Source: a virus
Taxonomy: Duplodnaviria > Caudoviricetes
Virus record (IMG/VR): IMGVR_UViG_3300033156_000251
Coordinates: 1-50,623 of that record
Length of the DNA: 50,623 nucleotides
Reading direction: 5' to 3' (one strand)
Part shown: positions 6,910-32,200 of the stretch, piece after piece
Layout: each line of letters begins with the position of its first letter
Position numbering within the stretch: position 1 is the first letter of the stretch
Notes under the pieces: generated by a model
What the model was told of the DNA's origin: nothing
Seen by the model: only the letters and a program-made list of their open reading frames with translations
The model's database searches: none
Program-made: the position numbers and the translations under genes

Positions 6910-7735
6910 AGATCTACATAAAAGAGTACTAGCCAATAAAGATTTACGACTGTATCACGATGTTTATTACAGTTGTGACTGGAATCTTTGGGATGTCTGG
7001 ACACCATCAGGATATGGGATACAGAAAATTCCTTTCCTGCAGGGTGTTTATATCGACTTTAACCATCTGGAAGATACAAAAGAATTATTTCACAAGTATT
7101 GGAACAGAAGTAGTTTTAGAACCAAAGGGTTTGCTGTTACTTTTCATTTTGGTAACATCATCCAACAAAAGCCAGAGATTTTAAAGCTCATAGATCAACT
7201 AAAACTACAGGGAAATAAAGGCAGTAAAGAAGCCAGGCAGATTAGAACCAAGCTAAGAAAGTTAGGACACAGTGGGGGTTTAATTGATACTAAAAAAGCT
7301 ACGGGGGGTTTATGCATTACTTCTATTATATTCAGAGCAAGTCCCGTGAGGGAGATCTACCCTCTTGTAACTTTTAGAACTGTAGAAATTACTAGAAGAT
7401 TATTAGCTGATATAATGTTGGTTGAGAATGTTTTTAGACAAGTTCTCTCAGACTGTTATCAATACATTAAGAAGGTGGAAATAAACTTTGGTATTCCTTG
7501 GGTGGCTAACTATAATCTTATACTTGTCAAGAATTTATTACCTGTCGCAATTAAGTCTTTACATCCCAGCTTAAAATCTTATTTGAAAATCAACAAAGAA
7601 GTTAACTATACAGCGCATAAAAAAGCCCAGGAGTTGTCTAATAAATTTAGTAGCTCCCCCATGATTATAAATGGAAAGGTACAAGCTGAATTCAGGAAGT
7701 TCAAGTTCCGTCCTCTGATTAAACGAGGCGAATAA
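6887..7735 (+). CDS. Divergent thymidylate-synthase-fold protein (paralog 3) with inserted RKLGH module
   Basis: GLCITSIIF...FRTVEITRRLLAD (Cys, Arg, Asp at R+11). Contains RQIRTKLRKLGHSGGL. Confidence 0.5.
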   Translation: MKLPQVYEDLHKRVLANKDLRLYHDVYYSCDWNLWDVWTPSGYGIQKIPFLQGVYIDFNHLEDTKELFHKYWNRSSFRTKGFAVTFHFGNIIQQKPEILKLIDQLKLQGNKGSKEARQIRTKLRKLGHSGGLIDTKKATGGLCITSIIFRASPVREIYPLVTFRTVEITRRLLADIMLVENVFRQVLSDCYQYIKKVEINFGIPWVANYNLILVKNLLPVAIKSLHPSLKSYLKINKEVNYTAHKKAQELSNKFSSSPMIINGKVQAEFRKFKFRPLIKRGE

Positions 7736-7744
7736 TTTTTTAGT

Positions 7745-7773
7745 CTGAAAGGTTTACGAGTTTTCGTTATAAT
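7745..7773 (+). promoter_or_regulatory. Sigma70-like promoter of the candidate sRNA
   Basis: CTGAAA (7745-7750), 17-bp spacer, TATAAT (7768-7773). No ORF follows before the terminator. Confidence 0.65.
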
Positions 7774-7779
7774 AAAGTT

Positions 7780-7845
7780 GGCTCAGGAAGAGCTCTGCCC
7801 GGCAGTCCTCCCGCAATTGCGTTGCTCCGGCTGCTGGGCTTTTTT
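7780..7845 (+). ncRNA. Candidate trans-acting sRNA: CsrA-site hairpin plus anti-RBS loop terminator
   Basis: GGCUC-AGGAA-GAGCU hairpin, then an 11-bp stem (7797-7807 with 7829-7839) around a 21-nt loop containing AUUGCGUUGCUCC, then U6. Confidence 0.7.
7797..7845 (+). terminator. Intrinsic terminator with an unusually large loop
   Basis: GCCCGGCAGTC...GGCTGCTGGGC followed by TTTTTT. Confidence 0.75.
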
Positions 7846-7943
7846 ATATACCCTCATTTTTAGGCCAAAAATGGCTGTTTTCGGTCAAAATGGCCGTTTT
7901 TGATATCAAAAAGGCTGGTTTTTTGTAGAAACTCAGAGAGTCT

Positions 7944-8123
7944 CGTAAGTCTTTATTTTGCAAGTATTTACGTGAATTGTAATTACTTAGGTAAGTTCTT
8001 ACTTTACAAGCACTTACAACGATTTTTGAGATGCCCACGGGTATAATTATACCCATATTTAATTTAATAAAAATTTACCCAAAATTTTTTGCTACGTAAG
8101 TGCTTGTTTTGCATAGGTTTATC
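7944..8123. repeat. Three copies of a 29-bp imperfect palindrome (7944-7972, 7990-8018, 8095-8123)
   Basis: For example CGTAAGTCTTTATTTTGCAAGTATTTACG. Five more copies occur elsewhere. Confidence 0.8.
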
Positions 8124-8154
8124 AAAACCCTGAAAATTTTTTTGTAAAATTTCA

Positions 8155-8183
8155 TTTACATACCCCCTTTCCTATAGTATAGT
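8155..8183 (+). promoter_or_regulatory. Early sigma70-like promoter
   Basis: TTTACA, 17 bp, TATAGT (with an adjacent TATAAT at 8183-8188). AT-rich upstream; lies ahead of the small-gene cluster. Confidence 0.65.
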
Positions 8184-8218
8184 ATAATTGTAATTTAAAA
8201 TTGAATACTTAATTTTAA

Positions 8219-8231
8219 GGAGCAACGCAAT
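8219..8231 (+). promoter_or_regulatory. Shared extended RBS motif GGAGCAACGCAA (also 8470-8481, 8767-8778, 9147-9158, 10434-10445 with one C>T, 44881-44892)
   Basis: A 12-mer running from the SD to the ATG, identical in five genes and with one substitution in a sixth. Confidence 0.9.
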
Positions 8232-8457
8232 GAAAACTTATTATCTCACAATCTGGTACACTCAAAGCAAACATCCAATTTATTGGCAAACTGTAAAAAG
8301 GTACATGGGTAAAGGTGAATTCTTAGGGGTAGGCGCAGACCAAAGCGGTTCCTACATAGCCTTCGGATTTCCGACTGAGAGAACTGCAGAAAACGCTAAA
8401 AAGAGGTTAGAGAAAAGTGATATCGAAGGCATAGTTGATATTGATATTGAAAGCTAA
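8230..8457 (+). CDS. Early hypothetical protein
   Basis: Preceded by the GGAGCAACGCA RBS motif. Confidence 0.8.
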   Translation: MKTYYLTIWYTQSKHPIYWQTVKRYMGKGEFLGVGADQSGSYIAFGFPTERTAENAKKRLEKSDIEGIVDIDIES

Positions 8458-8481
8458 AAATTTTATCAGGGAGCAACGCAA

Positions 8482-8742
8482 ATGAAAACTCAAAAACGAC
8501 AAGCAATCAAAGACAAAATCTTCGCCGACACACTTTCAGTTCGCAAAGGTATCTACACAGCAAAGTGGACGTATTTTTACTCACACGGTAAAACGGCGGA
8601 GTACTACAAAAAAAGAGTACAGGAACAACTTGAAGGTGCTGAAATTTTAGAATTCGGAGATCACTGGCACGCATTCTGCGGTGGAGCAAAAGCTGGTTCC
8701 GCCAGGGACTCGTACTTCTGGGTAACATTTAAATTAGCATAA
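8482..8742 (+). CDS. Early hypothetical protein
   Basis: Preceded by the shared RBS motif. Confidence 0.8.
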   Translation: MKTQKRQAIKDKIFADTLSVRKGIYTAKWTYFYSHGKTAEYYKKRVQEQLEGAEILEFGDHWHAFCGGAKAGSARDSYFWVTFKLA

Positions 8743-8779
8743 AAGTCTGAAACTAAAAATTAAAAGGGAGCAACGCAAA

Positions 8780-9124
8780 ATGGCAACTACAAAAACAAAA
8801 ACAAATCATACGGCACACATAGCACATAACGTCTGCAAAGCACTAGCTAAGCAAATAGAAGAGGCTAAGGATCCAGACGAGAGAGCCAAACTGGAAGTAC
8901 TATACGAAATAAATTCAGGTATTAAATCTACGGCATATAGTTTGGAGAGTAACCTACTAAAAGCCATAGAGAGATTAGAGGACGCACTTTCAGATTTAAG
9001 AGAGCATAGGGTTAGTTCCTTAAATACCTGCGGTCTGCTTCAAGGGGTCGAGGAACAGGTCATGTCTGACTTGGGCAAGCTGGTAGGACTTTACGAAGCA
9101 AGAGATTATGCTGAAAGGATATAA
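8780..9124 (+). CDS. Early helical hypothetical protein
   Basis: Preceded by the shared RBS motif. Confidence 0.8.
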   Translation: MATTKTKTNHTAHIAHNVCKALAKQIEEAKDPDERAKLEVLYEINSGIKSTAYSLESNLLKAIERLEDALSDLREHRVSSLNTCGLLQGVEEQVMSDLGKLVGLYEARDYAERI

Positions 9125-9158
9125 CACTAACCTGATAACTTTTAAGGGAGCAACGCAA

Positions 9159-9425
9159 ATGAAAACGAAACTGTCAAAAAAACAATACATGCAAAATCTC
9201 AGACAAGAGGTTCAAGCAGAATTACGAAGCCTATATAAAGAAATGCAGGCGGATGGAGAGGAATTCGTAGACCATACATCTTCGGTTAAGAAAGCCTCCC
9301 TGTCTAAAATAGTAGAATTACTTGAAGTAGAATATGCCTGGGACGCAGAGAGCATTGCTCGAGTATTACTATCAGCAGCAGTTGAAGAAGTTGATGATTT
9401 CATGATAGAAGGTCTCAACTCATAA
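9159..9425 (+). CDS. Early acidic hypothetical protein
   Basis: The shared RBS motif places the start at 9159 (MKTKLSKK), not 9108. Confidence 0.8.
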   Translation: MKTKLSKKQYMQNLRQEVQAELRSLYKEMQADGEEFVDHTSSVKKASLSKIVELLEVEYAWDAESIARVLLSAAVEEVDDFMIEGLNS

Positions 9426-9441
9426 ATCTGGGAGACTAGAA

Positions 9442-10221
9442 ATGAATACACAAACACTACAAAAATATTTACAGCCCAAACTTAACAAGCTTATTAAACA
9501 GGCAGAGCAGTATCACAAACAAGCCTGTGGTATAGTCGAAGCCGAACACAAGTCTAAGTTGTTAGCCAAACGCAAACATCAATACTCTCTCAATCCTCAT
9601 CGGACAGAGCGCATACATCCTGACGAGATAAAGGACAAGGCTCTTCGTAAAGAAGCTCGTGAGGTGGAACGTAAACTATTCGTAAATTTAGACAATCTGC
9701 TACTCAACAAGAGTTTAGTAACACAAAATGCTCAAGAGGTTAAACGTCAAGCAGAATTAGTGATAGCAAACCTGCAACGTCTAGAGAATGCTTTACAAGA
9801 ACTGCCTAAGTGGGTCAAGTACACAGAAGAGCAAGCAAAACTACTACGTTACGAACGGCGTAACGAGATATCACTAACGAAAAGAATCTTTGGGACTGAG
9901 GCTCCACCCAAAGCTTCTTCTAATAACACCGGAGCCAGTGAAGGAGAAATTAAAATGGCAAAGAAAGACACCACATCAATCAAAGAACTCTTGACCAAAC
10001 TTGAGAACGAGGTCGACCAGAAGCAGAAGCGTCTGATTAGAGCTGCACTTCGAAGGCTGGGTCACCGGGGCGGTCTAGGTAAAAAGACTGCTAAGAAGGT
10101 GGTCAAAAAGACTACTAAGAAAACCGCTAAGAAAACTACTAAAAAAGCTACCAAAAAGACTGCTAAGAAAGCTACTAAAAAGACTGCTAAGAAAGCTGCT
10201 AAAAAGAGTGATAAGAGCTAA
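9442..10221 (+). CDS. Coiled-coil protein in frame with a C-terminal RKLGH-module/histone H1-like protein (internal start 9955)
   Basis: GGGAG RBS before 9442 and AAGGAG RBS before ATG 9955. KKTAKK/KKATKK repeats at the C-terminus. Confidence 0.75.
   Translation: MNTQTLQKYLQPKLNKLIKQAEQYHKQACGIVEAEHKSKLLAKRKHQYSLNPHRTERIHPDEIKDKALRKEAREVERKLFVNLDNLLLNKSLVTQNAQEVKRQAELVIANLQRLENALQELPKWVKYTEEQAKLLRYERRNEISLTKRIFGTEAPPKASSNNTGASEGEIKMAKKDTTSIKELLTKLENEVDQKQKRLIRAALRRLGHRGGLGKKTAKKVVKKTTKKTAKKTTKKATKKTAKKATKKTAKKAAKKSDKS
10081..10206 (+). repeat. 12-bp-unit coding tandem repeat (KKxx) forming a histone H1-like tail
   Basis: aaaaagactgct/aagaaaactact-type units encoding KKTAKKTTKKAT... Confidence 0.85.
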
Positions 10222-10291
10222 AGCCGAAAGTCGGGCATAGTCGCCCGGCTCTGAGTAAGATGGTAACTTATTCACTGACGAGGTAAACCAA

Positions 10292-11416
10292 ATGGCTAAA
10301 TACAAATACAAAGTTGTTTGTAGGAACTGCGGCAATATAGAAGGCATGAACCGAGAAGGACTTGACTTGTCTCGACTAAGGTGCTTCAGTTGTAAAAGCG
10401 TAGGGAGTTACAATTATGTTAAACTCAAAGAAAGGAGCAATGCAATGAAACGGAAGTGGAAGTTGGATGACAGAGTAGTAGTTGACTTTGATGGTGAACC
10501 ATATTCTGGTTCAATCTCAAAGCTAACTAAATCAAAAGCAACAATATTATTTGATGATGGAGATGTGTTTAGTGTAAAGCTTAAGGACTTAAAGCCTGAG
10601 CCTGAACCCGAGTCTGAGTCTGAGCCTGAACTCGAGTCTGAGTCTGAGCCTAAGGCTACAGGCAAATCAAGAAGAGGAAAGAAGGGAGGTTATATCCAAT
10701 ACACTGTCGAGTGGGATAAACCCAAAATCAACTTCAAGTTTAAGGCTGAGTCAGGTGTTATGTTTTATGGCTGGTGGAGAAAAGTTCCATCAGAAGTTGA
10801 ACAAGCTTTCGGTGTCGATCTTATGGTAGAGTATAAGGGTTCGAGGTACAACGTTGATACCCTACACTACTACGAGCATGATCCGCGTAACAATATCAAC
10901 TCCCTCAACGCAGATCTTTGTGCTGCTGCTAACAAATGGTTGTATCAAAAATGTCAAGGCACGTTTGATACAATAGAAAGTCTTCAACAAAGAGCAGCCA
11001 AGCCTACTATTAGAATCAACCGGTTGGAAACTCTTGACAAGATTATTCTTAAGCTTAAAGAGTACAGAGACGTAGCTCTTAGGTCTGGTGGCACTCGGAC
11101 AATGATGTTTACTGGGGATTTTCCTGAAACTGACCCGAGCATGCGTATTCAAATGGATCTGACTAAACAGGCTTTAGGTCTTAAAGGCAAAGCCGTTCCT
11201 AGTCTTATCAACGGAGTCATGCTTGATGAGGTAGCAACTGACAACAGCAAGAAAAAGAAGGGGAGAGGTAAGAGTCTTGAACTTACACCTGATCCCAAAC
11301 TTGTAGAGTCTTTGATATCACAACTGAAGTTATCAAAAGATAAAGCAGAGAAACGCAAACTTCGAAGCGCTTTGAGAAAGATGGGTCACAGAGGTGGAAC
11401 TAGAAGTATTAGTTGA
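10292..11416 (+). CDS. Zn-ribbon + Tudor/SH3-like + RKLGH-module protein (internal start 10445)
   Basis: CRNC..CFSC; DDRVVVDFDGEPYSG...ILFDDGD; C-terminal KRKLRSALRKMGHRGG. The shared RBS motif precedes ATG 10445. Confidence 0.75.
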   Translation: MAKYKYKVVCRNCGNIEGMNREGLDLSRLRCFSCKSVGSYNYVKLKERSNAMKRKWKLDDRVVVDFDGEPYSGSISKLTKSKATILFDDGDVFSVKLKDLKPEPEPESESEPELESESEPKATGKSRRGKKGGYIQYTVEWDKPKINFKFKAESGVMFYGWWRKVPSEVEQAFGVDLMVEYKGSRYNVDTLHYYEHDPRNNINSLNADLCAAANKWLYQKCQGTFDTIESLQQRAAKPTIRINRLETLDKIILKLKEYRDVALRSGGTRTMMFTGDFPETDPSMRIQMDLTKQALGLKGKAVPSLINGVMLDEVATDNSKKKKGRGKSLELTPDPKLVESLISQLKLSKDKAEKRKLRSALRKMGHRGGTRSIS

Positions 11417-11464
11417 TGTACCTTTAAACTAAATTTAATAACCCTAATTGGAAAGGACACGACA

Positions 11465-11671
11465 ATGGCTAAAGAAAAGACAAACACACTAACTGTCAAG
11501 GTGGAGAACTCAAGCCTGGTTATTAGCATCCCGCTTATTAAGCCACCGAAGCCTTCAAAGTCTGGAAAGAGTTTGACAGTAGCTACTACACATGGTAATA
11601 TACCCACTCAGGCAATTATAAACAACAAGCCTGTGATAGTTGGTGTCAACGCTTATATTAAGGCTGACTGA
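11465..11671 (+). CDS. Small conserved-looking hypothetical protein (PSKSGK...GVNAY)
   Basis: AAGGA RBS; compact beta-rich sequence. Confidence 0.75.
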   Translation: MAKEKTNTLTVKVENSSLVISIPLIKPPKPSKSGKSLTVATTHGNIPTQAIINNKPVIVGVNAYIKAD

Positions 11672-11710
11672 AACTTTTTTCAGTAAGGCTTACATACACC
11701 CCTCCTCCTG

Positions 11711-11747
11711 GGCAGGTTTTAGGTGATATCCTAAACCTGCCTTTTTT
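11711..11747 (+). terminator. Intrinsic terminator of the early operon
   Basis: GGCAGGTTTTAGG-tgatat-CCTAAACCTGCC followed by T6. Confidence 0.85.
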
Positions 11748-11750
11748 ATG

Positions 11751-11852
11751 CGTAAGTATTTATAAAATAAAGAGTTATGTTGTATATTGCGCTTAATATC
11801 ATACGATTTTTAGTCGATTTTGACGTAAGTACTTTATTTATAAGCATTTATA
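11751..11852. repeat. Two copies of the 29-bp palindrome (11751-11779, 11824-11852)
   Basis: CGTAAGTATTTATAAAATAAAGAGTTATG and CGTAAGTACTTTATTTATAAGCATTTATA. Confidence 0.75.
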
Positions 11853-11895
11853 TTGCCAGAAGATTTGCCACCCTGAGTGATTATACATACCGGAT

Positions 11896-11918
11896 AAAAA
11901 AAGGCCGCGTATGGCCCT
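11896..11918 (-). terminator. Possible terminator of the late operon
   Basis: Minus strand reads AGGGCC-atacgc-GGCCTT-TTTTT. A second imperfect hairpin lies at 11961-11999. Confidence 0.5.
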
Positions 11919-12022
11919 GCTAACTGCCTTAATACGGCTCATAGCTAAGCCTGATAGACGCTAAAATAGCGGCCAAATAATTATTGACCGCCATTTTAGG
12001 TGTTTTCAGATATACTAAGGCT

Positions 12023-12277
12023 CTATTTAACTACGGGCGATTTAAGTAAGTCATAGCCTCCGGACGCTACTAATCCAATAACCACTGAGGACATCACTGG
12101 ATTATCTAAGTTTGTAAGATAACCCAAACCCAGTGCGATACCAACTGAAAAGAAAGGTAACCACTCACTTACTTTTTGAATGGCTTCGATTCTTTTTAGG
12201 ATCTGCACAATCGCTCCCACTACAGGAACAAGTGCCATCATTGAAGGTGTCAGTGTGACTGTGAATTGATTCTCCAT
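12023..12277 (-). CDS. Holin-like membrane protein
   Basis: 84 aa with about three hydrophobic segments, GLVASGGYD motif, at the end of the late operon. Confidence 0.65.
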   Translation of the reverse strand: MENQFTVTLTPSMMALVPVVGAIVQILKRIEAIQKVSEWLPFFSVGIALGLGYLTNLDNPVMSSVVIGLVASGGYDLLKSPVVK

Positions 12278-12279
12278 GA

Positions 12280-12507
12280 CTATTTCTCCTTACTAGACAA
12301 TGTTAATATTTTACCTACCGCTACCACCAAACCACCCAAAGCTAGGATCCACACACCTAACTTCGGGTCATATGTGGTGACAGTGGTACCTACTTGTTGA
12401 GCGGTCTGTCCTATCTCTTCTACTTGTGGCCCATGTTGGGTTGCCTGTTCCCATACAGCACAACCTGGCAATAACATTAAATAAACTACGGTTAAAAGCT
12501 TGTACAT
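12280..12507 (-). CDS. Lipoprotein with C-terminal TM segment (unimolecular spanin-like)
   Basis: GGAGG RBS, signal peptide with lipobox LLPGC, and a C-terminal hydrophobic helix. Confidence 0.5.
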   Translation of the reverse strand: MYKLLTVVYLMLLPGCAVWEQATQHGPQVEEIGQTAQQVGTTVTTYDPKLGVWILALGGLVVAVGKILTLSSKEK

Positions 12508-12524
12508 AAATTTCACCTCCAAAT

Positions 12525-14567
12525 TTAATTTAGTAATGCACTTGAGTACTTAGACCAATCAACAGAAATTACAGCCCACTGATGCTGTATTGATTTATGC
12601 AAATCTATGTTCGTCCACCTATACCATTCACGATAATCTGCCCAGTTTGCTGCTTCAAAGTCTAGCCAGCTGCGCGACGTTCCACTGGTATGTGGCCAGG
12701 GAGACTGGCTCGTATCAATCAAAACTTCATACTCAGTTTCATCTTCATTCAACGCTAATTCAATATAGCTATTATAAACAGTGGCTCCACTATTCACCGG
12801 CTCATGGTATATGGTGTGTGTGTCGTCTAGTTTAATATAACAACCATCTGCTCCCAGTTCTGGATCGCTAAAATGTGGATAGTTATCCTTCTCGATAGCA
12901 CAGTGCTTTACCCGAAGCTTTACCGTATTAGTGCCGAGTGCACAAGTGTATGCGTCTTGCTTCGGTGATACAGAACAACCCACAGTAGTGAGTTCAAAGA
13001 TATCATATATCAAACCGTTGTGTTTGTATTTGTATGTATATGGCGAAGAGCCATAGACTACTACTGCTCCAACTGCATAACCACATTCGGCCCAATCTGC
13101 ATAGTTTGTCCAAACCAATCTTCCATTACTAATGGTAGCTGCATCAGCACTTGCTGCACCTTCGGCACAAGATTCCAATGAGTTGTCATCCTCATCAGGA
13201 TCAGGATCAACAGCCTTCATCTCTTTAAGTTTGCAAGTGACATCATAAACTACTTCTCCATCTAATAAATTCAATTGAGAAAGCATAGCATATATGTCTT
13301 GTAGAACGTCATGGTAGAGTTCAAACTTGGTGTGAGTCTCATCCAAGATAGGATCATGTCTTGCTGCAATTTCTGCTTCTTGGGTAGGTCCATAAGCAGC
13401 ACTATAAACAGATTCTATATCAATAGGAGCATAATACTGTTTGTAAGTTTCTCCCATCGCGTCATACTGTGCTTGCGTAATGAGTAGTTTGCCTTCACTG
13501 TATCCAGGTGGGTTAGATCCACCAGGCCACATCTTCGCATCGCCTGAACTGTCCTGAACACGTCCAAAACTATACCTGAATGTTCGTCTCCAACAGCCAC
13601 AGGGATACGGGTGATCTGTAGTGTTTCCTGCATCATGTAGCCATTTAGGTATGTGCGGATAGTCTGGGTCCCACCACCAGTCATAATGCTCATCACCTAG
13701 TTCTCTCAGTAATAGCTCATATGCTGAGCCATTGCAATTCCATAGCTCATCATACAATTTAACATATATAGGATGATCTGCATTCTCATCTGGATTGTAA
13801 GTAACACCGCCATAGCCTGGTATTCCTGTTTCCCACGCAGATATCCAATCGCTATCTACCTCTTTCACAAAATCACGCGTATATACTTCAAAGATATATA
13901 TCGCCCATTCTTGATACGCGTCTCCCATTTTAATTTCATAGTTGTGCTGCCCCGGGCCCGAAGGGCTTTGACTGTTTAATGGCTCACCTTGTGTAATCGC
14001 ATACTCGCTCACACGTGGAGGATACAAACCCATCAGCTGCCAGTCTCCCCAGTCATTGACATAATGGGTTCGCAAATCGCCGGTGATTTGTGTCTTGTCA
14101 AGCTTATCATGCGTGTTAATCACAGGTGGCAAAAACTTATTCGCAAGCTGTGTAAAATCATAAGAATCATATCCTCCACCAGGCCAAGCTACATCATATC
14201 TGCAAATCCATCTGTCCGATAGTTCTCCCCAATGACTGTATTTGTTATAGTTGACGCCCAAGTACCAATAAGAGTTCAGGTTGCCTTCACTGTCAGTGGG
14301 AGGATTATCTATCAGATTTTGTTCTGTCATATATTGATTGTTGACGTATATTTCGTTTTCAAATTTGATGTGCAAGTCTCCACACTGCTGCTCACCTTTG
14401 CCTGTTGCCCAAGACACCCAGTCCGCACGTGTGATATTAACTGGTTCAATCCACGTGCCGGCATAGCGATACTGCAGACACCAAAACCATTTGCGAATAT
14501 CCTCAAACAGCTTGTTGTCTATCTCATCACCTTTTTCACATGGCCATTTACCAGCATCGAAAACCAT
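12525..14567 (-). CDS. Tail tip / receptor-binding protein (putative)
   Basis: 680 aa, rich in W/Y/D, last large gene of the tail module. Confidence 0.55.
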   Translation of the reverse strand: MVFDAGKWPCEKGDEIDNKLFEDIRKWFWCLQYRYAGTWIEPVNITRADWVSWATGKGEQQCGDLHIKFENEIYVNNQYMTEQNLIDNPPTDSEGNLNSYWYLGVNYNKYSHWGELSDRWICRYDVAWPGGGYDSYDFTQLANKFLPPVINTHDKLDKTQITGDLRTHYVNDWGDWQLMGLYPPRVSEYAITQGEPLNSQSPSGPGQHNYEIKMGDAYQEWAIYIFEVYTRDFVKEVDSDWISAWETGIPGYGGVTYNPDENADHPIYVKLYDELWNCNGSAYELLLRELGDEHYDWWWDPDYPHIPKWLHDAGNTTDHPYPCGCWRRTFRYSFGRVQDSSGDAKMWPGGSNPPGYSEGKLLITQAQYDAMGETYKQYYAPIDIESVYSAAYGPTQEAEIAARHDPILDETHTKFELYHDVLQDIYAMLSQLNLLDGEVVYDVTCKLKEMKAVDPDPDEDDNSLESCAEGAASADAATISNGRLVWTNYADWAECGYAVGAVVVYGSSPYTYKYKHNGLIYDIFELTTVGCSVSPKQDAYTCALGTNTVKLRVKHCAIEKDNYPHFSDPELGADGCYIKLDDTHTIYHEPVNSGATVYNSYIELALNEDETEYEVLIDTSQSPWPHTSGTSRSWLDFEAANWADYREWYRWTNIDLHKSIQHQWAVISVDWSKYSSALLN

Positions 14568-14568
14568 T

Positions 14569-16028: not shown

Positions 16029-16030
16029 GA

Positions 16031-22311: not shown

Positions 22312-22331
22312 TGCTATAACTCCTTATCTAT

Positions 22332-22361: not shown

Positions 22362-22377
22362 AAAGCCTCCTGAATGG

Positions 22378-23106: not shown

Positions 23107-23431
23107 TGTTATTCTCCTTTATCAATAGTGATTTTCTTGAAACTCTTTTCTTTGATTTTTTAGAAACTTTCAAGCTCTTCTTTTTTGACTTCTTTCGGAG
23201 TTGGTTTTTGGCTACTTCAGAAGAACTCTTCTCAGCTACTTTTGGTTTTGCTCTTTTTTTATCCTCGATTTTAGTTTCTACCAAATCAATTTTTGGGTAA
23301 CGAGCAACTATCCAATCTGCTTGGTCCTTATTATGTGTTTCCCAGGACATATTGTGCGTAAAGGTAAAACCCTTACCCTTATATTCGACTATCCTGGTAG
23401 GGCCAAAATTGAAAAGTCTGTAAGTAACCAT
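23093..23431 (-). CDS. Small basic head-associated protein
   Basis: AAGGAG RBS before ATG 23431; Lys-rich C-terminus. Confidence 0.65.
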   Translation of the reverse strand: MVTYRLFNFGPTRIVEYKGKGFTFTHNMSWETHNKDQADWIVARYPKIDLVETKIEDKKRAKPKVAEKSSSEVAKNQLRKKSKKKSLKVSKKSKKRVSRKSLLIKENNNVKI

Positions 23432-23458
23432 AACCAACTCCTTTCTTCTACTCTAATT

Positions 23459-24541
23459 TTAAGCTATATCCAACTCAACCACTAGTACACAAGCATTCAC
23501 GTTTTCAACTGCTACGTCAGCTCGCATTGAATAGAACCAATAAGTAGCCTCATCAGCAGCCTCTCGCTGCGACTCAATCTTGATTTCCCTTTGTATACCT
23601 ACAATCAAATTACCTTTAGGCGTAAGCAACATCTCAGTATGTGAACCGCCACCAAGCTTTCCGTCATCATCCAACGTAGTTGGTATAAGAGGACAAGGCA
23701 CGATAGGTACCTGGCCAAATTTAATACCCTTTTCAGCGCCGAGGATTGCCTGGTCACCCAGAATAGTAGATCTTGCAGCAAGAGCATCCACATAGTCCTG
23801 AACAACTTGGTCATTGCAGCAGAATCTCAGATTGCTAAGCCCAGCCATTTTGTATTTAGATGGTAAAATCTTTAGTGGTTTACTGAACTTGAACTCCCAG
23901 TTATAAGGAGCAGAAGTGTTTTGAGTAGCAATCCGCTGATTGACACTGCCCAAATCAAAATCGGAATCTGCATGCAGAATAGTAGAGCCACCACTCACAG
24001 CATTGTAATAAGGATCGGTGTCATCATCCGCATTTCTAATCCTGTAGCTCCAACCATCCCACAAGCTTCTAATATCATCAGCACCAAATCCGCTGTGGCC
24101 ATCCGTATCACCGATGTAGAAAGCTTCCTCTAATTCGTTGGCAATCTTAGCAGCTACCAATTTCATGATGTGATCCTTAAATGTCACACCGGACTCAATA
24201 CCAGTAACATCCTCAAGGTCATCATCATAAATCGCCACACAGCCACGTACCTTCTTACTCGTCAGTGCGATCTTGTTCTGAGTAAACTGCTTCAAGTAAT
24301 TGCTAGAACTAAAGGTGCTGGCAGGGTGCAAAAACCTGTCCGTACCTACGCCCAAAGCTCGAACATTCTTCGTGGGTCGTGACATCTTAACCACACGTGC
24401 AACTTGTTTCATCAGGACTGATTCATCTACAATATAGTCAATGAATCGGTCTGCCTCTTCTGCTTCCAACGTAATAGAAGGAAGCGAAACCATTTTTTGT
24501 ATGAAGTCTTTTTTCTTTAGTAACGTTTTATTTGTCTTCAT
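23459..24541 (-). CDS. Major capsid protein (HK97 fold, XkdG-like)
   Basis: LEAEEADRFIDYIVDES...IANELEE...GD...LTPKGNLIVGIQREIKIE. AAGGAG RBS before ATG 24541. Confidence 0.9.
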   Translation of the reverse strand: MKTNKTLLKKKDFIQKMVSLPSITLEAEEADRFIDYIVDESVLMKQVARVVKMSRPTKNVRALGVGTDRFLHPASTFSSSNYLKQFTQNKIALTSKKVRGCVAIYDDDLEDVTGIESGVTFKDHIMKLVAAKIANELEEAFYIGDTDGHSGFGADDIRSLWDGWSYRIRNADDDTDPYYNAVSGGSTILHADSDFDLGSVNQRIATQNTSAPYNWEFKFSKPLKILPSKYKMAGLSNLRFCCNDQVVQDYVDALAARSTILGDQAILGAEKGIKFGQVPIVPCPLIPTTLDDDGKLGGGSHTEMLLTPKGNLIVGIQREIKIESQREAADEATYWFYSMRADVAVENVNACVLVVELDIA

Positions 24542-24554
24542 AGTTATAAACTCC

Positions 24555-25454
24555 TTAATCCATAATCTTGATGCTCGGCCACGGATCATCTACCTTAGAA
24601 GTCTCAGCATCATCGTCGTCATCTTGTCCTTCTACACTCTTCTTGATACCTGTACCTTTTTCAACTGTCTCAAGTCGTTTAGACAATTCCTCTAAGGTTT
24701 TAGTAAGTTTGTTCTCATTCTCTTCTGCTTTTTTACTTTCAAGCTCCTCAATGGACTTGGCTATCTTTTCAATACTTTTTTCGACTTCTGAAGTCTCAGA
24801 CTTTTTTGTCTCTTCACCTACATCAGGAAGAATGGCTTTCAAAGCATTAAGAGCTTCAACAGCTTTTCTCAATTTATCTAAAGTGTCTTTGGAAAACTTA
24901 GCTCCAGCCTTTGCAACTTCTCCCTTCTCAGTTTTTGCAGGATAGCCATATCCATACCCGGCATATTTGGCTAATGTTCCTACAGCTTTTTTGAGATCAT
25001 CTGGAAAGTCTGCTTTGTACTTATTGACCAATTTAAGTGCTCCCTTAATAGCGGAGATTGCCTTGTCAGAAAGTTTCTCTGCCTTCTCAAAGTCTATTTC
25101 AAGATCTTCTTCTTCAAAGTAACTTTTGAGTAGTTCTACAATTTCGTCATCCATTTTATGTTCTCCTATAGTTTTCTTAATAGTCTTTGTATCTGAGCCA
25201 ACCATTTTAGTTCCACACTTCGGACATTCAATTCTTGCACACGGTACAGAGACACCAGCTCCTAGCTTTTCGTGCTCTATACTGTAGCCACAAGCAGGAC
25301 ACACACAGTATTTAGCACCGCCATCTCCCTGCAAATTACCACCAGTGCCTTTACCTTCACCGCGTGCCTTGAAGAATAGAAACTTCTTTTTATTTGCTGG
25401 TTCATCTACAAATGACACTTCTGTAGTTTCAATATCTTTCAATTTTCTTGCCAT
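24555..25454 (-). CDS. Scaffold protein with N-terminal protease segment and Zn finger
   Basis: Starts MARKLKDIETTEVSFVDEPAN; CVCPACG...CPKCG; coiled-coil C-terminus ending DDPWPSI. Confidence 0.8.
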   Translation of the reverse strand: MARKLKDIETTEVSFVDEPANKKKFLFFKARGEGKGTGGNLQGDGGAKYCVCPACGYSIEHEKLGAGVSVPCARIECPKCGTKMVGSDTKTIKKTIGEHKMDDEIVELLKSYFEEEDLEIDFEKAEKLSDKAISAIKGALKLVNKYKADFPDDLKKAVGTLAKYAGYGYGYPAKTEKGEVAKAGAKFSKDTLDKLRKAVEALNALKAILPDVGEETKKSETSEVEKSIEKIAKSIEELESKKAEENENKLTKTLEELSKRLETVEKGTGIKKSVEGQDDDDDAETSKVDDPWPSIKIMD

Positions 25455-25464
25455 AATCAAATCC

Positions 25465-28400
25465 TCATTCCGTTCTAGCATAACCAGCCATACTATAACC
25501 AGTAAGTTTCCCAGATTTTATATCATCCCAAATTTGTTTATCTAATATACGAGTAGTTAGCAGCCAGCTTCCTTTTTTTACTTCATGGCCTGCTATCACC
25601 AAGTCATTTGGAGCGATATAACTTTCTAGTACTCTAGCTTTTACTGGTTTACCTTTATGGTTCATTTTAAACTTTTGAACTTCTTCCATGAATTGGTAAG
25701 CAGCTTTACGAATCTCATCCTCAGTTGTCATGTCACCCTGAGAATCCACTTCATCGGGTTCGTATACAATTCCACATACTATTCGCTCATCTGATTTCTG
25801 TACAAAGAAGGGTACGTACTTCTCAAACTTCTTCTCTTCGGATTTAAGTCTTGAAATCATCCAGACCCTTCCTTCCCCAACAGGTACATAAGCAAATAAG
25901 TACTCGCCATCCTTCAACATTTTGCAATTGGCAAAGACCATCTTCTTAGCATGCCTATCAGCCTGGGTTACTTTAAAACTGAAATCATCTAATTGTAGCA
26001 TAGCGGCATAAGTGTTAGCGAAAGCACCTACCTCTCCAGGTTCAAATATCTCCAATCGTTTGGAACCAGCATCCATCCAGCTAACAGGCCCACGTATAGT
26101 TTCAGCTGTAGGTTCTTCAGCATGCGGTGTCTTCCACCCAAATCGAAGTTTGGCGTTAGGTTCATTCAAGAATTTATCTAGCTTGCTGAGGCCTGTCAAG
26201 TTACCTATCATGATCTCCCCACCTTCAAAATACTTGTCACCTTTACGTGCAAGCCTCAAATCTAGATGTGCTGCTTGTTCACCTATGGCTCCCTTCAGAA
26301 GCATTCTGAGTTTTCGATAATTGTGCCTGGAAGCATAAGCTTCACTTGCTACTTTTTTCAAATCATCTAAATACTTCTCTTCTATACCCATGATGTGCAA
26401 TTGCAAAACACCCCTACCTGTATCACCTACTTCATAATCAATATTGCCCTCAACTTTCTTCTGCAGTATGTTTCCTCTTGAAGCTATCGCTACAACTTGA
26501 TTAGCATAATACGGTTCTTTCCTATCCTTGTCTATATCTATGACCCTAGGTCCCAGCCACTGTAATTTATTGTTCTTTTCATCAGGGATAATCTCCTCAA
26601 TACCTATAGTAAGGATGTCTCCTGGCTGAGCCTCAATTTTTGTATTGAAAGTGTTTCCAAAATCTACGTAGGTCTTACCTCTGAATTTTATAGTGTTGGT
26701 ATAATCAGTGTCGCCTAGAAGAACACCACAGTGATAATTATAAGCATCGCCTTTTTTGGTTGTGTTGCGTTCAAAAACTATGACTTTGATTTCTGCTTCC
26801 AACTTTATCTTTGACCATCCTTCGTTGCTGCCATCTGTATCCCAAATGCTGTCAAGTGCTTTTATCACAACACCTTCACTCTGAGGCAGTTTAGAAAGTT
26901 TGTTAAAAGCCCTTTCAAGTTCTTTCTGGTTATGGGCTACAACGAAATTAGTCAAGGCGAAGTTGTCACTTCCTTTTAGATATTTGTTATAGAATTCCTC
27001 TAATTTCTTACGTCTGTCCTTCAAAGGTTTTTCATGCAAATCTTCAGACCAGTATGGCAAATCAAAACACGTAGCTTTGATTACATCACCCTCTTCAAAC
27101 ACGGGTTTGTCAGCCATTAACGTCATGAGTTTGATTCTTGGTAGAGGCTTTCCTTTTCTGTCAATACCCAGATTGAAATCCAGTATAAAATCTTCATTGA
27201 CTTTAGAAAGCACATCGGTCAAATCCTGAAATGCCTTGGTTCTGTCTTGTCTGCCTTCACTCCATATCCTAAGCTTGTCCCCTGACTTTTCGGCAATACA
27301 ACGAAAACCATTTAGCTTTTCTTCTACATCTACTGGCCACTTGTCTTTGATCCAGTCAGCTATATCTTCAAATCTAAAAGCTTCAGTTATATTCGCCATG
27401 GTAGGCTTCGGTGGTGTATATTTACCAAAGGGCTTCAGGACGCTTTTCAAAAACTCAAATTTGTCTTTGATATTCGGAGATGTATTGTCAGCAAAGTTTT
27501 TACTTGCCTCTCCTTGTATCTCTTTTACAGAGATGATTTCACCTGCACCGTCACCTTTGGTGGCCCATTTCTTAAAACAATTTTTACAAAACCACGCATG
27601 TCCGTTTCCTTCCGCCCACAAACACTCGATAGTAGGTTTAGCAGAACAACTCATGCACTGGTCTCTTCTGTGTCTAGATTTTTGTAGCTTGTCCAACTCG
27701 AGTACTAAAATAGCAGAGTTGTCTCCGCCAGATATCTTGTGCAATTTAATGCTATTGTCGGGCACACCTATCTCGGAGACAACTTGTTTTTTGAAATCTG
27801 GGATATCCTTGTATATTTGTTTGTGAGTCGGGTCCTGTCTTTCGCCTAAAGGTACGATAAAGATAGCACGCTTCTTAGCGACACGTACAGCTTCGCCAAT
27901 AACATCATTAGTATTAGCTACGTGCTCCAGGAAATGTACGCCTATGACATTATCAAAGATGTTGTCATCGTATGGTATTTCCTTCTTCTCCAAATCTACA
28001 TTATCAACTCTGAGTCCTTTACTCTTACACATGTCTAAGGCAGTCTTGTTGTTGTCTATACCTTTTACTCTATAAATACTAGACAGGCGTTTCTCTAAAC
28101 GACCAGACCCACAACCTAACGACAAGACTGTGTCACCGACAAGATACTTGGTAAGTTCCCTATACTCAGCTTCAAAATCTTTTGACCACGTGTCAAGTCC
28201 TTCATAATAAGCTCGTTCTGTCTCAGCTGACTTTCTATAGTCCTCTTTTACTTCTACCTTCTGAGAATCTTCTTTAGGACGTAAGACTAAATCGTAGAGT
28301 GGTATATATGTACTATGAGGCCCACGTTCAGAATATATAAATTCCTTTTCTTTGCTAGCTACGTTCTTCTGCTTGTCAAGTATCCTAACAAGCTTGAGTT

Positions 28401-28806
28401 CCAAACCGGTATCTCTCCTAGACTCATTCTCACGTAGTATAATATCCACATCTCCCGCTTTCTCCATGTTATTTACTGCAGAACCTCCGAGAGACACGTA
28501 GTCAGGTACAACTACTATTTCTCCAAGATTAGTCGTGTCAATCCCAAGCTTGACGATTTCCATTGCTTTCTTAAAAGCTGCCCTATCTATATCTTCTGTG
28601 CTATGCTCAAGCTTACGGCGATTGTATTCATTGAGCAATAACCTATACTTCGACAGAAAGCTCGAACGGTTCAAACTACCTACTACAGCTTTGTTATTCC
28701 CTTTGAAATTCTTATTCCAAAGCTGTATGAAACGCAGCCTTAATATCAGCAGCTCTTTATCTGGAGCCTTAGAAAGACTCGTCCTAGTAACTTCTTCTAT
28801 ACGCAT
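25465..28806 (-). CDS. Multidomain prohead-protease polyprotein: nucleotidyltransferase + SAM methyltransferase + Zn finger + ATP-dependent DNA ligase + LigD-phosphoesterase-like + XkdF-type protease
   Basis: GGS...DVD; LSLGCGSG...HFLEHV; CMSC..CKNC; EEKLNGFR..FDL..EGVVIK..WSKIK; HLDLRL; IVYEPDEVDSQGD...H...GSW...IKSGKLTGYSMAG. Confidence 0.85.
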   Translation of the reverse strand: MRIEEVTRTSLSKAPDKELLILRLRFIQLWNKNFKGNNKAVVGSLNRSSFLSKYRLLLNEYNRRKLEHSTEDIDRAAFKKAMEIVKLGIDTTNLGEIVVVPDYVSLGGSAVNNMEKAGDVDIILRENESRRDTGLELKLVRILDKQKNVASKEKEFIYSERGPHSTYIPLYDLVLRPKEDSQKVEVKEDYRKSAETERAYYEGLDTWSKDFEAEYRELTKYLVGDTVLSLGCGSGRLEKRLSSIYRVKGIDNNKTALDMCKSKGLRVDNVDLEKKEIPYDDNIFDNVIGVHFLEHVANTNDVIGEAVRVAKKRAIFIVPLGERQDPTHKQIYKDIPDFKKQVVSEIGVPDNSIKLHKISGGDNSAILVLELDKLQKSRHRRDQCMSCSAKPTIECLWAEGNGHAWFCKNCFKKWATKGDGAGEIISVKEIQGEASKNFADNTSPNIKDKFEFLKSVLKPFGKYTPPKPTMANITEAFRFEDIADWIKDKWPVDVEEKLNGFRCIAEKSGDKLRIWSEGRQDRTKAFQDLTDVLSKVNEDFILDFNLGIDRKGKPLPRIKLMTLMADKPVFEEGDVIKATCFDLPYWSEDLHEKPLKDRRKKLEEFYNKYLKGSDNFALTNFVVAHNQKELERAFNKLSKLPQSEGVVIKALDSIWDTDGSNEGWSKIKLEAEIKVIVFERNTTKKGDAYNYHCGVLLGDTDYTNTIKFRGKTYVDFGNTFNTKIEAQPGDILTIGIEEIIPDEKNNKLQWLGPRVIDIDKDRKEPYYANQVVAIASRGNILQKKVEGNIDYEVGDTGRGVLQLHIMGIEEKYLDDLKKVASEAYASRHNYRKLRMLLKGAIGEQAAHLDLRLARKGDKYFEGGEIMIGNLTGLSKLDKFLNEPNAKLRFGWKTPHAEEPTAETIRGPVSWMDAGSKRLEIFEPGEVGAFANTYAAMLQLDDFSFKVTQADRHAKKMVFANCKMLKDGEYLFAYVPVGEGRVWMISRLKSEEKKFEKYVPFFVQKSDERIVCGIVYEPDEVDSQGDMTTEDEIRKAAYQFMEEVQKFKMNHKGKPVKARVLESYIAPNDLVIAGHEVKKGSWLLTTRILDKQIWDDIKSGKLTGYSMAGYARTE

Positions 28807-28810
28807 AGTC

Positions 28811-29116
28811 TCAACTCTGTTTATATAATACTAATAACCAAGTTACTACTGCCACAGTGCCTGCTATTATAATGTATTTCAAAATGTCCAACCAGAAATT
28901 AGAAAACACTCTATGTTTATTGGCGTCATTATAGAGATAATTTAGTTTGTCAATAACACCTGGGTTTTCAAAAAGTACACTACGATTATCTGCTACGTCT
29001 CTTTCCAGCATCTCATGTTGCTTTGTATGTTCCGCCTTCCAGATAAGAAGTTGATCTACCTTATTGTCAATGATATCTAGCTTTTCATAAATCTTGTCAC
29101 TGTTTAAATCTGCCAT
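28811..29116 (-). CDS. Coiled-coil protein with C-terminal TM helix (holin/XhlA-like, putative)
   Basis: Soluble N-terminus and a single C-terminal hydrophobic helix. Confidence 0.5.
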   Translation of the reverse strand: MADLNSDKIYEKLDIIDNKVDQLLIWKAEHTKQHEMLERDVADNRSVLFENPGVIDKLNYLYNDANKHRVFSNFWLDILKYIIIAGTVAVVTWLLVLYKQS

Positions 29117-29141
29117 GATGTACTTTCCTAAAAACCTTTTA

Positions 29142-29285
29142 CTACTTCTCTTCTGATGTTTGTTGTAAACTTCCTAAAAACTCAAAATCGTCTAAGGTGC
29201 CAAGAAACTTCTTCTTCTTCTGCGACTCTTCTACTCCATCCTCATTGTCCTTCTTCACTTTTTTAATTTCTTCAATTTCAGACAT
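29142..29285 (-). CDS. 47-aa charged peptide directly after the MuF-ART gene (candidate inhibitor/immunity)
   Basis: MSEIEEIKKVKKDNEDGVEESQKKKKFLGTLDDFEFLG...*; starts 3 nt after the MuF stop. Confidence 0.5.
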   Translation of the reverse strand: MSEIEEIKKVKKDNEDGVEESQKKKKFLGTLDDFEFLGSLQQTSEEK

Positions 29286-29288
29286 AAA

Positions 29289-32200
29289 TCATAACTCCGT
29301 TAAGTAAACGTTCTTCCCTACTACCTTATCAACTTTAAAAGATGTGCCTTTCGGAAATAGTACTTCTTGCTCCGTTTTTTGCCAGGACAGGTTAGTAAGA
29401 TCCCTTCCTGATTTACTTTTTACTATTAGTCTTATATCACTGGGGTATCTTTCATCAACTAGCTTTTTACTTTTTGAACACGACATAAAAGACTTAGATT
29501 TAAATATGTTCCCAGGAACGAAAGTTCTTTCAAAGAATTTTTTGTTGCTCTTGGTTATATACATACCTCTATAGCAAGTTCCACTCCAGCCATCAAGTTT
29601 CAATAAAGACTTTTGTAGCTCATCTGCCTTTTTAAGATAATACTTAGTTTTTACTGGATCCTCAAAACCTTCACGTAAAGCATGGTTCACATTGACATAT
29701 CCTGGGCCTGTATAATCTTGTATGTTGCGCATATCTGCTTCAGTAAACTTTTCGCCACTTGCTTTAACAGGCATTGGTTTTGCCTCATCAGGTGCTACCA
29801 CCTTTTTTGGCCTGGCTACTGCTTTTGGTTTAGGTGAAGTCTCAGGCAATTTAGCTTTTGCTGGTAGTTCTTTTAAGTGTACTTCCCAGTAATCCCCTCC
29901 ATACTTTCTATCATACTTCAGCTTGGAACTAACTATTTTAAATTTCGTATTCTTTCTAATGAGAACTTCATTTTCTGCCCTATGCATGAAATCTCTAAAC
30001 TTGCCTAACTCCGCTCCTGATTTCAAATCTATCTTCATTACAACCCCTACTCTATCAGGCTGGGAGATTTCCGTTTGTACAAATGGCTTTATTTGTTTTT
30101 CATATTTAGCGGTGGAAGCAAAAGACTCAGCTGTCCAGGTCTTCGCTTTTTTACCAAACATTTTAGCCGCTTGCTTTCTGCTTAGGGTCATGCCTCGATA
30201 AACAGTACCCTTATAGTCGGGCATATGACTTACTAGCTGCTCCAAGTAAGGCAGATAATAAGAAGCCTGTTTGCCTCTCCAGGAAGAGACGGGTTTAATT
30301 CCTCTTTGTATCTTAGTCATCTCTTCAGATATAAAATCCTCTGACTGCCATTGATAGACTGCAAACCTTTGTCTAGCGTTTGCATATTTGAAAACTTCTT
30401 TGTGACTTAATTGACCGGTCGGTATGGGAGTTGGTTTTACATATCCCTTCTTTTTGTTCTCTTTCAGAGCCTTTTGCCAGAGCTTCCACTTGGGGTTTAA
30501 AACACGTTTATCACGCTCATTCAGTATGTATTTATAATACTTCCAGTTTATCGGGCACAAGCCACCTTCTCTTGCTAGAGCATACAAACGCTCATCATCA
30601 GACATGGTTTTACCTCTCATGGCTGTTCTAGTGTCAGTGCCCCAATTAGGATAGGTTGGTTTACCAACTGCCACGGGTTCTGGTTCTGGAGCAGGTTTTG
30701 GTTTAGGCTTAGGCTTAGGCGTCACTTTCGGTTTAGATGGAGCCTTAGGCAACTTACCTTCTACAGGTTCAATGTAATAAGTTATTTCCTTAGCACCCTT
30801 TACTCTACGAGTAGTTTTACGTAATACTCTGAATCTTGTAGCTGCCCCAACTAGCACTTCTTGCTCTTCTGGATTTGCAGCTACAGTTGTAAAGTCAGCA
30901 CATCGGCGAGGCGCTTTCTTTACTACAAATAGAACTTTCGTATGAACATCTTTTATCTTAGCTCCATAACCTGCAAAACCCTCCGCCCATTTCCGGCTCT
31001 TAGAAAAGCTAGTCAAAGCAGATGTGGTAAATTCCTTGTTAGCAAGCTGTTCTTCTAACCTGGCCAAATCCTTCTTTCCTTTTGTCCCTATAAATCTCAT
31101 GCCTCTGTATATTTCACCCTTCACAGGTGGAGCAGTTGAAATCAGACGTTCAAGACGAGCAATAGTTTCTAATTGCAAACGTTGATTAGCAGTTAATGCT
31201 GAAAGTTTCTTTTTACCAGATAATATAGCTGCTTCCAGTTTTCGTAGTAGGTTAAATTCTGAAGTACTATAACCAGCAACTGCTGACTCATCTCCCCAAG
31301 TAAATGACTTGCGCCATTCTTCTATTGTTTTGTAACGAGGTAGCCTAGACATGTCAGATAAACCACCCTTGTGCCCAAGCTCTGCAAGTTTCCGGCGTAT
31401 CTTCCTACGCTCATCTGCGTCAAGTGTCCGGTGCACAGCAGTCATCAGTTCTTCTACTGTCATACCTTCTGTCACACCTTCTGGGACTGGAATTTTTGGC
31501 CTAGGTTTAAGCCCACCCTTATGTCCTAATTTCCGCAGTTGCCGGCGTATTTTACGTTTATCTGCAGGGGACTTAGCCTTAGCTAATTTATCTAGCAAGT
31601 CGTCTATGTGCCTATCCCTTAACTGGTCAGGTGGAATACAAGCTGCTTTTGACATCTTGATAATTCCCCTACAGACTGGAGTGTTTGCCACAACTGGTAA
31701 CAAAGCACATCTGCAGTTTGGGTGTACTGGTATAAGACTTTTGGCTTCCTTGAGAGTATATATTCTTCCATTCATTTCACCACATGTAGGACAACAACCT
31801 TCATAGGCAGAGAATTCAAGCTTTTCTACTCCCAAGTCACTCATACCAATTGTATAACCCAAATTCTGTGCACGAGCAGTTTCAGTTCTTGCAATAGTTA
31901 TTGTTCTACGACGATGTGTCTTACCAGCATATTTTTGTACTCTCTTGTCTATCTCATCCGCTGTAAGTTCGGGGTATCTTTCTTTGTCTGATAGCAGGTT
32001 GCGGTAATTTACAATAGACTTAGTTTGCCTCTCAGTAAGCCCAACTAGAGGACGCAACTCTCTGGCAATTTTATCCATCGACTTACCTTCTTTTATACCA
32101 GTAGCGATGTAGGTGCGTATGCCTTTACGTGTTTCGTTATTCACCTCTCTTACTAAATTTGCTGTAAAGCTCTTTGCTGCTTTTACAGCTTCAGGATTGA

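Follow-up and report, generated by a model that had tools for sequence, protein, structure and literature searches.

What does a short basic peptide do that one phage carries in several otherwise unrelated proteins? The question is raised by the virus record IMGVR_UViG_3300033156_000251 of IMG/VR (Duplodnaviria; Caudoviricetes), which was analysed over its whole length of 50,623 bp and is referred to here as the window. It is a complete record with direct terminal repeats and represents a tailed phage with three gene blocks. An earlier note on this DNA had proposed that a helical-hairpin module occurs in five copies within four unrelated proteins. We find that the module represents a domain family that is new but of a familiar sort, a small mobile tether or tag, which is absent from the family libraries, the structure searches and the literature that were searched, and which may hold its carriers on nucleic acid.

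All five copies are present where they had been claimed, each inside a long open reading frame (ORF). On the plus strand, one (7184–7297) spans residues ~100–137 of a protein resembling thymidylate synthase (TS; ORF 6887–7735), one (9967–10089) lies in the product of ORF 9442–10221 between a conserved N-terminal region of ~175 residues and a directly following lysine-rich tail of the KKTAKK type, read from the translation (10090–10218), and one (11291–11413) forms the C-terminus of the protein of ORF 10292–11416. The other two stand in tandem on the minus strand in a MuF head protein fused to ADP-ribosyltransferase domains, copy 1 (31494–31625) immediately past the MuF domain and copy 2 at 31347–31472. 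A loose regular expression applied to the six frames of the window gives exactly five matches, which are these copies. When the module is masked, the four host proteins fall into separate BLAST clusters and are thus unrelated elsewhere.

Could the similarity reflect no more than chance or composition among basic helices, with no true domain behind it? The motif is indeed short and rich in lysine, arginine and leucine, yet the probability of this explanation is practically nil. A hidden Markov model (HMM) of the five copies, run against 741 six-frame ORFs, scores them at 57.6, 67.3, 68.5, 69.1 and 71.7 bits (in the order given above), while the runner-up reaches 7.3 bits. In leave-one-out tests, where both MuF copies were omitted together, the omitted copies still score 29.7, 36.0, 35.4, 35.8 and 26.8 bits, as against 7.2 bits at most for the best unrelated ORF. 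As isolated peptides, the omitted copies reach 34.9–44.2 bits, and the top score among 2000 composition-preserving shuffles per copy is only 11.4–17.6, so that the comparison with shuffled basic helices, which the earlier note had called for, leaves the similarity standing. Against 1.84 billion representative proteins the five-copy profile finds 348 matches at E≤1e-3 (8 of them at E≤1e-10), each being a cluster of proteins at 50% identity, and the non-basic residues glycine, histidine and leucine are near-invariant among them. Chance is thus refuted by the left-out, shuffle and large-database scores alike. A sixth copy considered in ORF 38252–38590 (7.3 bits in the HMM scan) was rejected, as no module is found on reading its sequence; this small minus-strand protein, encoded upstream of the terminase region, has a basic N-terminus that includes a GRP motif of the AT-hook type.

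The copies have diverged far more in DNA than in peptide. Over a core of 24 codons, pairs of copies are identical at 42–54% of amino acids and at 44–53% of nucleotides, the same codon is used at only 1–5 of the 10–13 identical residues per pair, and no exact nucleotide match is longer than 9. Synonymous change is therefore saturated, which argues that the copies are old and have been kept by selection on the peptide, and that they are not recent DNA repeats. The contrast between a conserved peptide and diverged DNA had been drawn beforehand and is borne out by these figures; judged from the codon comparison, the module is under purifying selection.

Consensus, position and context were counted over 156 module instances in the best 150 of the 348 representatives, which are 41–1307 residues long and come from phage and metagenome proteins. 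The module comprises ~37 residues with the consensus x-x-[IV]-x-x-L-[LIV]-x-x-L-x-x-[ST]-x-D-x-x-E-K-R-K-[IL]-R-x-x-L-R-[KR]-[LM]-G-H-x-G-G-[LA], in which L6, L10, R23, L26, R27, G30, H31, G33 and G34 are conserved at 98–100%. It carries a net charge of +6.1 on average, with +5.4 in the second half. Most proteins have one copy; tandem copies occur in the window MuF protein and in one other representative (P0006).

An AlphaFold2 model of MuF copy 1 (71-row alignment, mean pLDDT 83.3) has a helix at residues 2–18, a turn, a second helix at 22–34 and a non-helical GHxGG end, which fits the amphipathic helix that had been noticed ahead of the motif. The module thus consists of an amphipathic helix 1, an S/T-x-D-x-x-E turn, a helix 2 in which a near-invariant arginine ladder lines one face and the opposite face is hydrophobic, and a near-invariant G-H-x-G-G loop, and it is predicted to fold independently. 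In a model of the full ORF 10292 protein, the hairpin (residues 335–363, pLDDT ~91) likewise forms a separate unit on a disordered linker. A Foldseek search of the PDB with the 46-residue hairpin, which is so small that fold searches are weak, gave no match at E≤0.001 and 70 at E≤10; the matches listed (designed repeats, GroEL apical helices) are generic hairpins and were not considered meaningful. A sequence profile search of the PDB gave 13 weak matches at E≤10, the best being a designed protein (E 0.025), and a match to a "GHTGGL" stretch of OTULIN was dismissed as chance.

The HMM search of characterised families matched no characterised domain; the nearest are Smoothelin and DUF6800, with the scores seen below cut-off. 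Pfam was scanned with the 5 window copies, 71 small members, 84 larger members and 18 picked members, and in the scanned members the module was not seen to pass a curated cut-off of Pfam, PHROGs or NCBIfam. One of the 71 members matches one PHROG family, at E 9.5e-4. Smoothelin (PF12510), an N-terminal domain of ~50 residues in a family whose range we take to be eukaryotic, has the same pattern of a helix, an acidic turn and a basic helix with E-[KR]-R-x-I-R-x-x-[LI]-R, and P0087 aligns to positions 4–45 of its 50-position profile. It is matched at E≤1e-3 by 6 of the 71 small and 6 of the 84 larger members (12 of 155). The bit scores seen are 17.0 (P0005) and 21.6 (P0087) against a cut-off of 23, which the best match (E 9.5e-6) may exceed. 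Nine of 10 chosen members have no Smoothelin match and one of the five window copies has one (E 0.29), and in both alignments seen (P0005 residues 16–35, P0087 residues 29–70) the GHxGG loop of the module lies outside the matched stretch. DUF6800 (PF20607; 43 residues, of unknown function) is matched by MuF copy 1 over profile positions 12–41 at E 8.5e-4, but the 19.9 bits fall short of its 25-bit cut-off. Elsewhere it was met only in P0046 (E 0.12, 13 bits), and at E≤0.01 that window copy stands alone among the 71 members. To our knowledge, Pfam assigns no function to either family, and a literature search found no paper on the motif, on DUF6800 or on the PF12510 domain. A paper on polyvalent phage proteins (PMC5512222), taken up below, describes 40 novel domains. 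These are presumably in Pfam by now. The module might be among them under another name; the Pfam scans matched no such family.

Other searches extended the family little. A tblastn search of 50,697 GenBank phage records with P0005 found no copy, a search limited by the low-complexity filter and the short query; in the same records, ORF 10292 found nothing and the MuF protein matched over residues 38–192 only. No cultured phage with the module emerged from these searches. A degenerate DNA pattern, which represents one exact variant of the motif and therefore undercounts, matched species-representative genomes three times, always in small ORFs of Acidobacteriaceae metagenome-assembled genomes. 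These ORFs (L031:1996-2193, L032:4477-4653, L033:96-197) have a longer loop between the helices, and one of them lies near an ORF that resembles a primase-polymerase by eye. A search for homologues of near-equal length returned 22 small proteins without names, searches with ORF 6887 and for longer proteins returned the window's own proteins only, and a search for related loci with P0013 found none.

Is the module mobile, as the term "portable" in the earlier note implied? It is C-terminal in 54 of the 156 instances, N-terminal in 20, internal in 76, and in 6 the protein consists of little else. BLAST of the 150 representatives with the module masked yields 8 multi-member families and 95 singletons, 24 of which extend over 80 residues or more apart from the module. 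The largest families resemble the window MuF protein (17 members), ORF 10292 (16) and ORF 9442 (10). Within these three, many members have the module at the same relative position, so that it has been inherited there and not newly grafted. A graft is seen in the TS-like protein: a homologue in record L015 (40% identity, E 9e-77) keeps the module, whereas one in L011, which aligns over the C-terminal half with a BLAST E of 1.4e-6, is interrupted by a gap precisely at the module site, directly ahead of the cysteine-containing strand that aligns with TS-like phrog_160 proteins. The module is here a true insertion. Predicted self-folding, the disordered linker in the ORF 10292 model, dozens of unrelated contexts and the exact gap in L011 together uphold the description as a portable helical-hairpin tag.

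The host proteins themselves could be labelled with varying success. For the TS-like protein (6887–7735, plus strand; 282 residues, overlapping the end of polA), the fold named in the earlier note is an Atlas lead only: its feature score against a viral cluster with Thymidylat_synt in 29% of the members is 0.95, and the structure rows, with template-modelling (TM) scores of 0.50–0.58, are below the threshold. The protein has no Pfam match at E≤1 (PF00303 included), no PHROG and no match in a PDB sequence search; a cysteine of the protein aligns with one of the TS-like phrog_160 proteins, although the alignment is weak (19–23% identity). The protein of ORF 9442–10221 (plus strand, 259 residues) runs from a helical N-terminal region through the module to a basic tail and belongs to no Pfam or PHROG family; the same architecture is found in 10 clustered representatives. 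Its lysine-rich tail, like that label, was read from the sequence.

The 374-residue product of ORF 10292–11416 (plus strand) was modelled with AlphaFold2 from a 21-row family alignment (A5) and compared by Foldseek. It consists, in this order, of a Zn-ribbon, a Tudor-like barrel, a disordered acidic linker, an alpha/beta domain (~140–300), a disordered linker and the hairpin; a pTM of 0.33 indicates that the domains are placed independently of each other. The barrel (residues ~60–105, with strands at 61–96 of pLDDT 94–97) superposes on single Tudor domains with a root-mean-square deviation of 1.0–1.6 Å over ~50–58 columns and a probability of 1.00, the TM score (target) being 0.64–0.87 for most, although the E-values are only 6e-3 to 1.7e-2. 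Pfam Tudor_2 matches one of 84 relatives (E 1.3e-6), and an Atlas search gave no usable feature match. The Tudor label thus holds at the level of the fold. In record L010, an open plus-strand frame of 76 residues with a good module (840–1067, 35.8 bits) overlaps the ORF 10292-like gene (P0034; 835–1926, plus strand, read in a different frame) where the latter is annotated with a lysine-rich N-terminal extension; the database start of this gene is probably too far upstream.

The MuF label holds. The protein of ORF 29289–32504 (minus strand, 1071 residues) passes the Pfam cut-off for Phage_Mu_F (PF04233; 45.2 bits against 29.6), and its gene adjoins the presumed portal gene. ADPrib_exo_Tox (PF03496) is matched in three stretches with 70.5 bits (cut-off 23.4), the catalytic residues having been read by eye only. 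The three ADP-ribosyltransferase domains follow in series (about residues 406–563, 753–898 and 916–1062; PHROG matches at 406–563, 753–898 and 921–1065) with Pro/Lys-rich linkers between them, and it is unusual for one head protein to carry three effectors. The same architecture of MuF and effector is known from polymorphic-toxin and polyvalent proteins (PMC5576092, PMC5512222), but the available parts of these two papers describe no conserved hairpin between MuF and effector, and "linker", "conserved motif" and "helical" do not occur in the available text of PMC5576092.

What, then, does the module bind? The earlier note had named a nucleic-acid binder and a docking or packaging signal as alternatives, and its interpretation is supported in part. 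The reading that we favour is that of a tether to nucleic acid, or more generally to a polyanion, most likely DNA; we put it forward as a real possibility that stops a little short of being probable. We infer both the ligand and the purpose of tethering, and the comparative evidence leans to the side of nucleic acid. The sequences that follow the module point the same way. A GRP motif of the AT-hook type stands within 15 residues after the module in 12 of the 156 instances, where about one would be expected from the frequency of GRP in the same proteins, and a tail with at least 33% lysine or arginine follows in 42. Among the 71 small members, Pfam HC2 matches the tail in two and an NCBIfam histone-H1-like model gives one weak match (E 0.0021), and a Pro/Lys-rich linker comes after the module in MuF proteins. 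The small mobile DNA-binding elements (AT-hook, SAP/HeH, HhH, and lysine tails of H1/Hc type) are like the module in size and mobility, and AT-hook-type motifs and lysine tails are physically adjacent to it. They differ in that none of their Pfam families matches the module itself, the SAP, Rho_N (HeH) and HhH models being absent among the matches of the 5, 71 and 84 scanned sequences. In HhH domains a second helix follows the glycine loop, whereas the module has none at this place. There is also precedent among phage proteins: injected polyvalent proteins commonly carry nucleic-acid-binding domains, SAP/Rho-N among those reported (PMC5512222, in the part available), and gp7 of SPP1, a MuF protein that binds the portal, is described as DNA-binding by the title of a paper that PMC5576092 cites, as far as the available text of the latter goes.

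The gene context of the module was compared in ten other IMG/VR records reached through it, several of which are fragments. They have 3, 1, 4, 4, 3 and 1, 3, 1, 3, 3 module matches, so that seven of the ten have at least three. In the window and in L007, L013 and L011, the module genes other than MuF lie ~0–6.6 kb downstream of polA on the same strand and beside TS-like genes, which in these three records are upstream as in the window. All five larger records (G001–G005) encode MuF, four of them above the Pfam cut-off, but only in G001 and G002 is the module within it; G003, G004 and G005 have a MuF without module and nevertheless 3–4 module-bearing ("tagged") proteins each. The head genes differ as well. 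Identity to the window's capsid candidate (a virion structural protein of the minus-strand virion block, 23459–24589) and to its portal is 61–69% in G001 and G002 and ~30–34% in G004, while in G003 and G005 no homologue of either was detectable by BLAST. The tagged set thus travels with the replication module of these phages and not with a particular head, and the fact that the key residues are fixed across records with different head genes suits a universal ligand. A single in-frame stop interrupts each of three matches in these records, namely those to the portal (G001:C1:24738-26066, TAA), to the capsid candidate (G002:C1:769-1371, TAA) and to a module ORF (G004:C1:43173-43283, TAG); these stops may reflect errors of sequencing, genes that are split, or recoding.

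These data bear on a quite different proposal, namely that the module is a packaging or docking signal, a basic hairpin that binds an acidic surface of the procapsid (inner face of the coat, scaffold or portal tail) so that tagged proteins are encapsidated and injected. It would explain why a head-internal protein such as MuF has two copies in the window, and why 74 of the 156 instances stand at a protein end and six more are almost the entire protein. The window also offers an acidic target: the presumed portal (32501–33961, minus strand; labelled from gene order and from reading of its sequence) ends with 13 Asp or Glu in its final 20 residues, including a run of seven Asp, and is the only ORF of at least 90 residues in the window with at least 8 acidic residues in that stretch. 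A small targeting element at a protein end is known from P22, whose scaffolding protein has a C-terminal helix-turn-helix that targets the coat protein, as far as the sources available describe it. Alt of T4 is packaged and injected (PMC5512222, in the part available). However, the MuF proteins of G003, G004 and G005 have no module although these records encode tagged proteins, and the contact residues of the module are invariant in G003 and G005 despite their lack of a detectable counterpart to the window's capsid and portal. The module does not go together with an acidic portal tail; a correlation of such tails with module-bearing MuF was looked for across the five records and none was clean, the candidate portal of G003 ending in a basic tail. 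The tagged genes are in the replication module and not in the head module. The coat-binding helix-turn-helix of P22 is basic too, but the module has no match to scaffolding proteins in sequence (13 PDB matches) or in fold (50 of the 70 Foldseek matches being listed), and it occurs in phages with unrelated head genes. The comparative data weaken docking onto MuF or onto a particular capsid, and we regard a packaging signal as distinctly unlikely.

Could the acidic partner be a protein of replication instead? In that case the module would be an adaptor that docks the tagged proteins on one acidic hub of replication or transcription, assembling a complex at the replication site; the acidic region of the phage SSB-like protein, the tail of the host SSB and RNA polymerase are candidates. 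That Arg, His and Gly are invariant speaks for a well-defined partner or binding pocket, and the tagged genes are co-located with those for polA, TS-like proteins, dCMP deaminase and a pyrophosphohydrolase. The SSB-like protein of the window (47152–48231, plus strand; phrog_378) has a run of ~40 Glu and, at residues 235–279, a Tudor-like segment with 42% identity to the barrel of ORF 10292 (E 3e-9). Such partners are candidates only, though, and fusions to AT-hooks and H1-like tails are more simply related to DNA. Near-standalone forms of ~45 residues (6 of 156) would have no cargo to dock, although some of these may be ORF fragments. We consider a hub unlikely, if still worth keeping in mind. 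By its identity to the barrel, the Tudor-like segment is a second module that is shared between proteins of the window phage.

It is very improbable that the hairpins of different tagged proteins simply pair with each other into helical bundles, so cross-linking the set. Helical hairpins often pair, and there are tandem copies in the window MuF protein and in P0006, but a charge of about +6 per hairpin disfavours self-association in the absence of a polyanion, and most proteins have a single copy. A predicted homodimer (alignment A4, two copies) scored 0.05 against a mark of 0.42, which counts neither for nor against pairing.

The tether to nucleic acid thus remains the reading that we favour. 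AT-hooks, H1-like tails, the association with replication genes, indifference to head type, the arginine ladder and precedent all argue for a universal polyanionic ligand, which would most simply be DNA. According to this model, the phage lineage would append the module to proteins that need to stay on the genome. The tethered set would comprise proteins of the replication module encoded next to polA, namely the TS-like enzyme, the protein with the H1-like tail and the Tudor protein, and in some phages also the MuF-effector fusion, which would be tethered in the head and leave it with the DNA.

Several observations weigh against this. Two positions accept only Arg and do not exchange it for Lys, and His and Gly do not vary either; this indicates a specific, geometrically defined ligand, which may equally be the acidic surface of a protein. 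No DNA-binding fold or family that is known turned up for the hairpin in the PDB profile search or among the best 50 of the 70 Foldseek matches. The adjacent AT-hook or lysine tail could do the DNA binding and leave the module free for another role, and the window itself encodes two acidic candidates for a protein ligand, the C-terminal tail of the portal and the poly-Glu SSB-like protein. Furthermore, the records G004 and G005, on which part of the comparison is based, are incomplete (71% and 84%).

As to the setting of the tagged genes in the window, the first plus-strand block (~224–11,671) contains genes of replication and nucleotide metabolism. Between 1609 and 7735 it encodes a nucleotide pyrophosphohydrolase, a phrog_13667 protein, a TS homologue (phrog_160), a dCMP deaminase, polA and the second TS-like protein, which is the tagged one; this combination of genes suggests a non-canonical pyrimidine in the phage DNA. 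The minus-strand virion block includes the capsid candidate, the MuF fusion, the presumed portal and, two genes beyond the latter, the large terminase (PHROG match). A 1113-residue protein encoded on the minus strand (25465–28806) matches PHROGs of head maturation proteases with residues 983–1113 and a PHROG of ATP-dependent DNA ligases with residues 487–694. The second plus-strand block, again of replication genes, encodes a helicase, an exonuclease and the SSB-like protein.

A more far-reaching version of the tether, which we think quite improbable, is that a single DNA-gripping hairpin loads a changing set of proteins on the phage's own, possibly base-modified DNA, and that part of this set is packaged and enters the host bound to the genome. 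The set would include chromatin-like coat proteins, a nucleotide enzyme, the Tudor protein and the MuF-toxin fusion. If this were true, the module would be a modular address tag that provides a route to co-injection and to early protection of the genome, one that is undescribed for tailed phages.

If the tether as such is correct, the module would represent a new, compact and mobile domain family of phages with sharply defined residues (R-x3-R and GHxGG), and a self-folding tether of 37 residues could double as a fusion tag. The module would also join proteins that have no other known function into one functional set for each genome. The identity of its ligand would therefore annotate several gene families together, and it might show how MuF-effector fusions are coupled to the phage genome with which they travel.

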